Assembly: GCA_964518725.1 (NCBI GenBank)
Contig: CAZFKP010000015.1
Span: forward strand, 1,450-65,449
Length of the DNA stretch: 64,000 nucleotides
Reading direction: 5' to 3'
DNA from: an uncultured Rickettsiales bacterium
Lineage (GTDB): Bacteria > Pseudomonadota > Alphaproteobacteria > Rickettsiales > SXRF01
Positions 61,651 through 64,000 of the stretch are shown one piece after another. Made by a program: the position numbers and the translations under genes. How positions within the stretch are numbered: position 1 is the stretch's first letter; the number at the start of each line of letters is the position of its first letter. The notes beneath the pieces are model-generated. The model made no database searches. It was not told the origin of the DNA and was given only the letters and a program-made list of their open reading frames with translations.

Positions 61651-64000
61651 ATGCAATCCGTCTCTCAGATCCGCACCGCTTTTCTTGAATTTTTCGCCCG
61701 CAATGGCCATGAAGTGCGGCCTTCGAGCAGCCTCGTGCCGCATAATGACCCCACGCTCATGTTCACCAACGCGGGCATGAACCAGTTTAAAAACGTATTC
61801 ACCGGCGTCGAGAAATTGCCCTTTTCGCGGGCGGCCACCTCGCAGAAATGCGTGCGCGCCGGCGGCAAGCATAATGATTTGGACAATGTGGGCTACACCG
61901 CCCGCCACCACACATTTTTCGAGATGCTCGGCAATTTCAGCTTCGGCGATTATTTCAAGGAAGAGGCCATCAATCTCGCATGGGAATTGCTCACCAAAGA
62001 TTATGGCCTGAACCCAGAAAAACTCTGCGTCACCGTGTATCATGATGACGACGTGGCCTGGAATCACTGGAAGAAGGTGACGGGATTCGCCGACCATAAA
62101 ATTATCCGCATCGCCACCAACGATAATTTCTGGTCGATGGGCGACACCGGCCCGTGCGGCCCCTGCTCCGAGATTTTTTATGACCATGGTGAGCATATTG
62201 CCGGTGGCCCTCCCGGCTCACCCGATCAGGATGGTGACCGCTTCACCGAAATCTGGAATCTCGTCTTCATGCAGTTCGACCAGCAGGCGGGTGGCGAACG
62301 CCTGAACCTCCCCAAACCTTCCATCGATACCGGCATGGGGCTGGAGCGCCTGGCCGCCGTGCTGCAAGGCGTGCACAGCAATTATGAGATTGACCTGTTT
62401 AAAAACCTGATTGCCGCGATTGAGCAGGCGTCAGGAGTCAGCCACAAGGTAACAGAAGCCGCCCATAAGGTCATCGCCGATCACCTGCGCTCGTCGTGTT
62501 TTTTGATCGCCGACGGTGTGCTGCCATCCAATGAAGGCCGCGGCTATGTGCTGCGCCGTATCATGCGCCGCGCCATGCGCTATGCCCACCAGCTCGGCTG
62601 CAATGACCCGCTGATGTACCGCCTTGTCCCCTCACTTATCACCGAAATGGGCGCGCAATATCCGGAGTTAAAACGCGCTGAAGCCAGCATCACCGAGAAC
62701 CTCCGCGCTGAAGAAGAACGCTTCAAGGAGACGTTAGGCCGTGGGTTGAAGTTGCTGGAAGAAGAGGTTGAGCGTAGCACCATGAAAGTAATGGTACATG
62801 ACTATAACCCCTCCTTAGATTTTAAAATTTTTCCAGGTGATGTGGCCTTTAAACTTTATGACACTTACGGTTTCCCGCTGGATTTAACGCAGGATATTTT
62901 GAAAGCTAAGAATATTAAAGTAGATGTTGAAGAGTTTGAAAAAGCCATGGAACAGCAGCGCGAAATGGCTCGCGCCGCGCATAAAGGCTCCGGCGATACC
63001 GCCACCGGCAAAATCTGGTTCGAGCTGAAAGAAACACTTGGTGAGACTAAATTCCTAGGGTACGATGCATATACTGCCAATGCAAAAATTCTCGCTATCG
63101 TTAAGAACGGCCAGCCAGTACAAAGCTTTGAGGCCAATAGCCCCATACCTAATAACAACAATGAAGTACTTATTATTCTGGATCAAACTCCGTTCTATGG
63201 TGAATCTGGCGGGCAAGTTGGCGATACGGGCTACTTTTTCTCTTCCAAAGGCGCAGATAAACCCATTGCAATCATTCATGATACTCTCAAACCCCTTAAT
63301 GGCTTAATTGTTCATAAAGCCAGAGTCTATGCCCCATTAAAAGTTGGTGATTCGGTGCGCGCCACCATCGATACCGCCCGCCGCACCCGCATCATCTCCA
63401 ACCATTCCGCCACCCACCTGCTGCACAAGGCACTGCGCGATGCGCTGGGCGGGCATGTGACGCAGAAAGGCTCGCTGGTGGATGCAGAAAAATTGCGTTT
63501 TGACATCAGCCACAATAAACCCGTCAGCAAAGAAGAAATCGCCGTTATCGAGAAGGAAGTGAACGCACAAATCGCCATGAGCCGCGATGTGTTGTGCCGC
63601 GAAATGACGCCGGATGACGCGATTGCAGCAGGGGCGATGGCGCTCTTCGGAGAAAAATATGGCGACAAGGTGCGCGTGCTTACCATCGGCAATTCGGTGG
63701 AGCTGTGCGGCGGCGTGCATGTGAAAAACACCGGCGATATCGGCTTGTTTAAAATCACTTCTGAAGGCTCGGTAGCAGCCGGTATCCGGCGGCTGGAAGC
63801 TGTCACCGGCGAAGCAGTGCGCGAATATATGCTGGAAGAAATTGAAAAACTCCTCTCGTCATTGCGAGGGGCTGCGGGCGACGAAGCAATCCAGACGGAT
63901 GCCACAAAAACTGGATCGCTTCCCCCGCAACAAGTGCAGGGTCGCAATGACGAACTCAAAAACGCTGCTCTGGCAGAACTTCCTGCATTATTTTCCAAAG
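61651..64000 (+). CDS. alaS: Alanine--tRNA ligase (5' partial, continues past the window end)
   Basis: The ATG is at 61651 and the frame stays open to the window end, so it is absent from the ORF track. It has [86 protein letters not shown] and the ...ELCGGVHV... editing-domain motifs. Confidence 0.95.
63858..63951. repeat. Nested-palindrome repeat element, copy C (in frame inside alaS)
   Basis: gtcattgcgagg...gaagcaatccag...ctggatcgcttc...gtcgcaatgac has the same termini (GTCATTGCGAG / CGCAATGAC) and inner GCAATCCA / TGGATCGC pair as copies A and B. Confidence 0.65.

Follow-up and report, generated by a model that had tools for sequence, protein, structure and literature searches.

An in-frame repeat in alaS

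How does a palindromic repeat come to be read as part of an essential enzyme? The question is raised by the last part of a 64,000-nt stretch of DNA from an uncultured Rickettsiales bacterium (the whole stretch is hereafter the window), where alaS, the gene for alanyl-tRNA synthetase (AlaRS), carries a segment that resembles two other sites in the same window. Here this segment was compared with the whole genome to which the window belongs (G000; 2.09 Mb, 55% GC), with a sister genome of the same genus (G002), with a genome of another genus (G014) and with further relatives. The alaS segment is, with high probability, an in-frame copy of a dispersed dimer of repetitive extragenic palindromes (REPs) of the CGTC-tagged type, old and tolerated in a flexible linker of the protein.

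The alaS copy (copy C in the window) lies at 63857..63952 on the plus strand, within 1-2 nt of the span of 63858-63951 given in a preliminary description of this DNA, and is supported by leave-one-out nhmmer, by RNA folding and by the corresponding site in G002 and G014. Its 96 nt (CGTC...GACG), equivalent to 32 codons and read as codons 736-768, form a pair of CGTC-tagged REP hairpins whose heads face outward. The left unit (63857..63893, plus strand), recognized from its sequence, its unit anatomy and the covariation of its stem, has the head CGTC, the outer stem ATTGC...GCAAT and the tail CCA; it is followed by a spacer or loop (63894..63911, plus strand), GACGGATGCCACAAAAAC, which departs from the consensus of the family, CATCTTGCTT/AAGAAAGATG, and by an inverted right unit (63912..63952, plus strand) that reads TGG...GCGAT...ATTGC-complement...GACG and is defined by sequence and fold. 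The copy opens CGTCATTGCGAG and closes (G)TCGCAATGACG, a perfect 12-nt terminal inverted repeat (TCGTCATTGCGA / TCGCAATGACGA) spanning 63856-63953, and it carries ATTGC heads at both ends, unlike most elements of the family, which combine one ATTGC unit with one ATCGC unit.

A model built from the other 30 full-length copies matched the alaS copy end to end (positions 1-85 of 85) with an E value of 5.8e-8 over the whole genome, so that the resemblance is not a matter of chance. As RNA, the 111 nt at 63850-63960 fold into a single long hairpin (-45.1 kcal/mol, z -3.9, equalled by 0 of 200 shuffles), in agreement with the long mRNA hairpin expected in the preliminary description. An Rfam search of the window gave no family matches besides three tRNAs, and a full-text literature search with the repeat's own sequence words matched only primers.

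The alaS frame passes through the copy without a stop, and translation of the segment gives exactly the peptide quoted earlier; some 32 residues are thereby added between the editing and C-Ala domains. Since this frame is both open and conserved, the insert peptide is presumably translated. Within the window alaS occupies 61651..64000 on the plus strand with its first 783 codons, as listed among the open reading frames (ORFs), and continues past the end of the window and of contig C15, which stops 165 nt further on and shares a 55-nt overlap with the start of contig C23. The joined C15+C23 ORF encodes 932 aa with a DHHA1 domain at its end and a normal C-terminal domain, and in G002 the gene is an uninterrupted 938-aa open frame on a single contig, element included. 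Both observations show that alaS is free of the downstream disruption that would have undone the initial interpretation; the gene is intact and complete despite the element. The Pfam domains of the protein (tRNA-synt_2c, residues 6-576; tRNA_SAD, the editing domain, 674-716; DHHA1, 830-931) leave the insert between tRNA_SAD and DHHA1, in the linker leading to the C-terminal domain. This linker position had been proposed together with a site immediately after the conserved GIRR(I/L)EAVTG end of the editing domain; the former stands, and the latter has to be corrected, since the insert begins 16 residues later.

A dispersed family of REP dimers

A genome-wide search for further copies had been suggested, and iterated nhmmer searches located 39 loci in G000, 31 of full length and eight half units or fragments, with copies of 70-106 nt. 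Each full element consists of two inverted REP hairpin units with their heads outward, so that dimers make up 31 of the 39 loci (spacer consensus CCATCTTGCTT/AAGAAAGATGG), and all 31 start with (C/T)GTC and finish with GAC(G/A). A unit comprises the head (C/T)GTC, a 5-bp outer stem, an interior of 12 or 20 nt (the distance between the outer arms is bimodal) holding an internal loop, an inner stem of ~3 bp and a 3-nt loop, the returning stem and a CCA tail, and it ends ...GCAATCCA or GCGATCCA. The outer stems were ATTGC/GCAAT in 34 cases, ATCGC/GCGAT in 19 and ACTGC/GCAGT in seven; all were complementary and never crossed, which is true covariation for the hairpin of the unit.

About four to seven of the 39 loci are translated. 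In four cases the element lies within an ORF that has Pfam domains: alaS, thiC (behind the radical-SAM domain), thiL (in AIRS_C) and, probably, a gene for a family-4 uracil-DNA glycosylase (UDG; before the UDG domain). Two or three more loci overlap N-termini, namely those at ccmH, at an lptA-like gene and, for one copy of the element, at a contig end, and the other loci are intergenic, by inspection often just 5' of gene starts such as those of metK, pheS and ctaA. In thiL the copy (C11:39785-39873) is in frame within AIRS_C, at a place where G002 has 13 native residues instead; its absence from G002 indicates that the element has been active since the G000/G002 split, and it is the youngest insertion of the family that can be dated. 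The thiC linker (C32:2706-2792 in G000) holds elements at slightly different points in G000, G007 and G011, and the same linker in G002 (locus L116) has a different palindromic element in frame (CCTCCCCCTTGAGGGGGGAGG ... CCCTCCCCCCTCCAGGGGGAGGG), which makes this linker a hot spot for translated repeats.

In the sequences next to the 31 full copies there was no consistent direct repeat that could represent a target-site duplication. In alaS, thiL and thiC the element seems to replace native linker residues, and this replacement, together with the missing duplication, suggests copying by break-and-repair rather than by classical transposition. Beyond G000, an 11-mer of the element, GTCATTGCGAG, was enriched in 38 of 44 family genomes (0-2 hits for a reversed-pattern control) and patchy across the class, where 30 of 301 genomes gave at least 10 hits and the highest count was 377.

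Age of the alaS insertion and its tolerance

AlaS from 19 relatives was aligned with that of G000 (20 sequences), and the AlaS linker was read in 29 family genomes. Most orthologues are without the segment, which agrees with its initial description as an insertion. Among the 29 family linkers it is present only in G000 and G002, as a full element, and in G014, as a left arm plus loop; it is absent from the remaining 26 family genomes and from G001, where the linkers are unrelated. Orthologues with a homologous segment thus exist, a situation that the preliminary description had taken to speak for a native origin, but they number two and are read here as sharing a derived insertion. The rest of the family has a longer and different linker, ..EQLQKLQEEN..L..EL followed by ~20 variable residues, which is absent from G000, G002, G014 and G001.

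Between G000 and G002 the element differs at two bases, each of which alters the amino acid (S to L, Q to R). In G014, the DNA GCGTCATTGCGAGGAGCCGGAGGCGACGCGGCAATCCAGACCGAT stands at exactly the same codon as the G000 insert, and G014 further shares with G000 the atypical spacer start (CCAGACNGAT...ACNAAAAC), the atypical AATCCAGACNGAT and part of the alaS-copy spacer (GACCGAT...ACCAAAAC); from the loop it continues directly into the conserved L.QLP.AF, the right arm having gone by in-frame deletion. The tree of editing domains joins G000 and G002 with G014 (support 89/83) and places the element-free G001 as the next sister (96/91). On the simplest reading of these relationships, the element would have entered alaS once, before G000 and G014 separated, and G014 would later have lost one arm. 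With only three carriers, one of them from another genus, the insertion is old, heritable and tolerated. The alaS insert thus provides a dated example, common to both sides of a genus-level split and half lost in one lineage, beside a younger thiL insertion that is missing in the sister genome.

A first codon count had pointed to special conservation of the element at the nucleotide level (0 synonymous changes over 32 codons, against ~15% divergence of the whole gene), an idea that was dropped when a sliding window revealed alaS to be a mosaic in which the element, at 98-99% identity, is no outlier. Trees of the catalytic, editing and C-Ala segments of alaS disagree, and the gene looks like a recombination mosaic. 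Separate from the element, a low-GC stretch at 62750..63330 on the plus strand (aa ~367-560) stood out in the composition profile, with 35-47% GC compared with ~57% elsewhere in the gene; it coincides with the part that is 30-70% identical between G000 and G002, with indels, the remaining gene being 92-100% identical. In another relative, G003 (locus L015), the editing domain of AlaS has ~20 additional residues (..GISDSGLGIREEKVTTSNPQSPIPNA..) directly before the conserved SVELCGG, and these look like another translated repeat in a different region of AlaRS.

Some observations weigh against the account of an old copy inserted into alaS. Exact removal of the 96 nt creates a TAA at the junction, so that the element seems to replace native residues instead of being a clean addition, and its true boundaries or the accompanying changes are ambiguous. 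No clean empty site with the same flanks was present in any relative compared. In addition, when G000 is compared with G002, conservation of the element does not exceed that of other parts of alaS, and nothing therefore shows selection on either the hairpin or the peptide.

The segment could instead be native AlaS sequence, or an assembly artefact at a contig end, that merely resembles the repeat. The end of contig C15 is 210 nt away, repeats often break assemblies, and the alaS copy has the lowest nhmmer score of all full-length copies; its full-length match to a model built without it is, however, difficult to reconcile with mere resemblance, as are the same element at the same place on an unbroken contig of G002 and its absence from the other 26 family genomes and G001. 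The contig break itself is downstream of the element, in unique sequence bridged by the 55-nt overlap, and both variants of this explanation appear highly improbable. A different possibility accepts the insertion and holds that it has been exapted, the peptide restoring the length of the AlaRS linker after loss of an ancestral coiled-coil segment of ~35 aa, or the mRNA hairpin regulating expression through pausing or stability, with selection retaining the insert. Its persistence since before the genus-level split would fit, as would a hairpin that is still strong (-42 to -45 kcal/mol) and the fact that G000, G002, G014 and G001 are all without the usual QLQKLQEEN...EL, the element bringing the G000 linker to about the family length. 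Yet alaS is intact in G014, which has no right arm, and in G001, which has no element, so that the gene can do without the full peptide and without the hairpin; both substitutions that separate G000 from G002 alter the amino acid, the element is conserved no more than adjacent gene segments, and the insert has low confidence and no defined fold in the structural model described below. Exaptation is accordingly regarded as unlikely, and the insert peptide is probably neutral or nearly neutral cargo of an old REP dimer rather than a new function.

Why such a cargo can be carried is suggested by its position and by its reading frame. By sequence, the insert aligns with the helical dimerisation region of Archaeoglobus fulgidus AlaRS (PDB 3WQY), which we take to be the only full-length AlaRS structure solved. 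In an AlphaFold2 model of AlaS residues 584-838, the part readable from C15 alone (41 homologues), the predicted local distance difference test score (pLDDT) was >90 in the editing domain, fell to 50-69 in the insert, the lowest values of the region, and rose again to at least 80 in the best-modelled part of the following long helix (model residues 201-220), with a helix break within the insert. The earlier expectation that an insertion should be tolerated in this linker is in line with these values. Of its three frames, alaS uses the hydrophilic one (SLRG..GD.AIQ....RNDE), as do thiC and thiL, and it is the frame used by CGTC-1 dimers of Rickettsia and other bacteria in the examples listed by Di Nocera et al. 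(SFLRKQES...DSRFRGND; PMC3733652). Another frame (VIA...LAMT) is hydrophobic and is read at the N-termini of CcmH and of the LptA-like protein. The insert would therefore be tolerated through a flexible, length-variable helical linker combined with a hydrophilic frame, an interpretation well supported by the model and the alignments.

Relation to known repeats

CGTC-tagged REPs, as defined by Di Nocera, De Gregorio and Rocco (2013, BMC Genomics 14:522; PMC3733652), have the head CGTC, with TGTC and CCTC as variants, a stem that opens with A-T and holds 8-9 bp around a loop of 4-5 nt, and a tail that is mostly CCA; they frequently form inverted dimers, whose spacers of 20-100 bp often have complementary ends. 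The element of G000 agrees with them in the unpaired CGTC/TGTC head, the A-T start of the stem, the CCA tail and the inverted dimers with complementary spacer ends, and also in being mostly intergenic with a minority in frame in genes, aminoacyl-tRNA synthetase genes included, and in its lack of a REP-associated tyrosine transposase (RAYT). With CGTC-1 dimers it shares the reading frame (S-F/S-L-R...R-G-N-D). It differs from the plain stem described there in that its own is interrupted (5 bp outer and ~3 bp inner, ~8 bp in total), and in the cognate GIY-YIG gene between REP ends described below, no dedicated enzyme having been found in that work. Compared by peptide only, the peptides of the element (VIARS..KQS, SLRG..GDEAIQ, ..LAMT, ..ARNDE) match none of those listed for CGTC-1 to CGTC-4, among them VIPAKAGI/SFLRKQES/DSRFRGND for CGTC-1, VIAGLDPAIH/DARVKPGHD for CGTC-3 and VIPWLDHGI for CGTC-4, and LAMT, ARND and SLRG gave 0 hits in the supplement of that paper.

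The preliminary description regarded a translated repeat in an essential synthetase as unusual outside Rickettsia-type genomes. This did not hold: for many free-living bacteria the 2013 paper lists GTAG and CGTC REPs that lie within genes, among them the genes for glycyl- and isoleucyl-tRNA synthetase in Erythrobacter litoralis and glyS in Xanthomonas oryzae, and G000 itself has the element in frame in thiC, thiL and the UDG gene. The precedent in Rickettsia is provided by the Rickettsia palindromic elements (RPEs) of Ogata et al. (2000), in-frame palindromic inserts in unrelated housekeeping genes that add a fold-compatible surface peptide, as summarized in a 2024 review (PMC10969869), which gives the RPE precedent for in-frame fusions. 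The G000 element resembles RPEs in its in-frame, fold-compatible insertions (the alaS linker, the C-terminal linker of thiC, thiL and the N-terminal linker of the UDG). It is unlike them in its host, an uncultured alphaproteobacterium of ~2.1 Mb and 55% GC and not a Rickettsia, the connection in sequence type being through the CGTC superfamily, to which RPE-4 (as CGTC-4) and RPE-6 (as CGTC-1) are assigned in PMC3733652. It is also unlike them in its size, 70-106 nt compared with ~150 nt for RPE-1, and in its ~4-7 translated loci out of 39 compared with nearly half of RPEs. [quoted passage not shown] The element is judged to be a new sequence family whose kind and behaviour are both already known. 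In-frame REPs in aminoacyl-tRNA synthetase genes having already been published, the alaS insert is one more example of the rule that palindromic REP-type repeats can enter the flexible loops of essential enzymes in frame and so turn into protein sequence.

A GIY-YIG nuclease gene between REP ends

A search between neighbouring elements revealed a 96-aa GIY-YIG gene at C12:11331-11621 (minus strand), outside the window. Matches to PF01541 in G000 were limited to UvrC and this gene; the genome has no other stand-alone GIY-YIG nuclease gene, and the REP ends that enclose it are those of the dimers. The REP-bracketed unit measures ~0.45 kb (locus C12:11211-11767) and is abutted on each side by a full gene-less dimer. 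In the orientation of the gene, the locus reads: full dimer, GTCATTGCGAGCACCGCGACGCAATCCATCTTGCTT, ~30 nt, ATG, 96 codons, TAA, GATGGATCGCCACGGCCTTACGGCCTCGCGGGTGAC, second full dimer, with GACGTC at both dimer junctions. The inner ends of the unit (CCATCTTGCTT... and ...TAAGATGG) equal, one half each, the consensus spacer found in the gene-less dimers, and the dimers therefore look like internal-deletion derivatives of the unit. Both REP ends and the inner spacer ends are common to the unit and the dimers, which would make the C12 unit a candidate for an autonomous partner of the kind that MITEs have.

GIY-YIG homologues were gathered from the family, from the 301-genome class sample and from motif-rich genomes without a close match. 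A flank-to-flank inverted repeat scoring at least 12 was found at 34 of 48 GIY-YIG loci compared with 0 of 192 same-locus controls (control maximum 11), and YGTY-headed hairpins stood on both sides of 39 of 51 loci. The flanking REPs vary among paralogues and include canonical CGTC-1 (GTCATTCCCGCGAAGGCGGGAATCCAG) and CGTC-3-like (GTCATGCCCGGGCTTGTCCCGGGCATCCACG) units. Genes with ATTGC/ATCGC-type REPs on both flanks fall into one protein clade (97/91) that covers nine families, a clustering of labels reached in 0 of 500 shuffles; judged from this tree, the REP type bracketing GIY-YIG genes tracks the protein clade across Alphaproteobacteria. The C12-type unit recurs in unrelated gene contexts in 14 other genomes, G002 included. 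Genomes with the cognate gene also have higher counts of GTCATTGCGAG (p 2.6e-4 by Mann-Whitney test in the family, p 5e-7 by Fisher test in the class, neither corrected for phylogeny), and in G000 a single such nuclease goes with a single abundant YGTC REP family, no other CGTC-type family being above background.

Similar architectures are known from REP doublets forming hairpins (REPINs) and their RAYTs, the "REPtrons" (Bertels and Rainey 2011; PMC3116915). In both cases REPs occur as inverted pairs, a single-copy enzyme gene is flanked by REPs, the REP type matches the enzyme type and the repeats persist in lineages. The C12 unit departs from the REPtron in its CGTC rather than GTAG head, in its 96-aa GIY-YIG gene in place of an IS200/IS605-type Y1 transposase, and in a gene tree and patchy distribution that suggest horizontal movement of the unit. 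A Y1/RAYT transposase (PF01797) gave no match in G000, the control search being positive in six of 14 reference genomes. With GIY-YIG homing endonucleases and UPF0213-type proteins (PDB 1ZG2, BH0048) the 96-aa protein shares the catalytic motifs (Y8, Y19, G21, R29, H33, E54/E66) and a selfish-element context; unlike homing endonucleases, it has no NUMOD or other DNA-binding domain, is not in an intron or intein and is bracketed by hairpin repeats. To group I intron endonucleases (23.5 bits against a cut-off of 56) and to 1ZG2 (E 0.0095) it bears a weak resemblance.

From these comparisons it is proposed that the gene-less copies would derive from the ~0.45-kb C12 unit by internal deletion and that the 96-aa nuclease would make or spread the repeats, as RAYTs do for GTAG REPs; this origin of the G000 copies is given slightly less than an even chance. 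Stated more widely, and just as tentatively, small (~90-100 aa) single-domain GIY-YIG nucleases between inverted CGTC REPs may be autonomous partners of these repeats, the counterpart of the RAYT REPtron, with the alaS, thiC and thiL inserts as deletion derivatives. The nuclease step has several points against it. It had been expected that every motif-rich genome would have a cognate GIY-YIG gene, and this expectation failed, since only 10 of the 30 class-sample genomes with at least 10 motif hits have one; seven of 19 motif-rich genomes searched again were without any GIY-YIG homologue, among them a 100%-complete genome with 105 hits. To our knowledge, a 96-aa catalytic domain without a DNA-binding domain corresponds to no known transposase. 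The association between GIY-YIG genes and REPs is comparative in nature, and the nuclease could equally be a selfish gene homing into REP spacers.

These points lead to the opposing account, in which the repeats spread and persist without GIY-YIG, through another transposase of host or foreign origin or through replication or recombination at hairpins, and the gene is either a passenger or a selfish gene of the homing type, for which REP spacers are safe places to land. It explains the many GTCATTGCGAG-rich genomes without the cognate nuclease, some without any GIY-YIG, and the presence of the gene in only one of ~31 dimers in G000; Di Nocera et al., who found no dedicated enzyme for CGTC REPs, considered mobilisation by non-dedicated transposases (PMC3733652). 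What it leaves unexplained is an architecture that is near-universal around these genes and a REP type that is specific to the protein clade in at least nine families, as well as the pairing of a single nuclease with a single REP family in G000, where a Y1/RAYT transposase was not found. Non-autonomous elements, moreover, commonly outlive their autonomous partner. Spread without GIY-YIG is a real possibility, though it falls somewhat short of an even chance.

If the proposed role of the nuclease as maker of the repeats is true, it would supply the dedicated enzyme reported missing for the CGTC superfamily, including RPE-4 and RPE-6 of Rickettsia and dRS3 of Neisseria, and the spread of these repeats would take place by nuclease-driven break-and-copy and not by transposition. 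The superfamily is widespread (Rickettsia, Wolbachia, Neisseria), and its mobilising enzyme has gone unreported since its definition in 2013. A literature search found no paper pairing GIY-YIG with REP, REPIN, RAYT or palindromic elements, and a 2006 survey of GIY-YIG proteins does not mention flanking repeats. The C12-type architecture, which recurs in many alphaproteobacterial families, offers a concrete, bench-testable hypothesis for the origin of the repeats.

Other copies in the window and the genome

Two more copies are present in the window. Copy A (4142..4235, minus strand) is intergenic and was identified by nhmmer (55.9 bits, E 4.9e-15) and by its sequence. Copy B (7233..7325, plus strand; 50.3 bits) overlaps the 5' end of the ccmH ORF (7219-7683), whose Pfam CcmH match covers residues 33-152; read in the other frame (VIASVARQSI...WIAASLALLAMT), it supplies the hydrophobic N-terminus of CcmH. 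The same pattern was seen outside the window at C25:23717-23786, where a copy overlaps the 5' end of the LptA-like gene (Pfam LptD_N) and its hydrophobic frame gives the signal-peptide-like ..AMSLAIFAMT APSLAQE. Finally, at C31:8503-9975, five elements in both orientations flank a 273-aa ORF (8867-9685) whose N-terminus is signal-like and whose tail is rich in Lys, Pro and Glu, and abutting elements at this locus share GACGTC at their junctions, as on C12.

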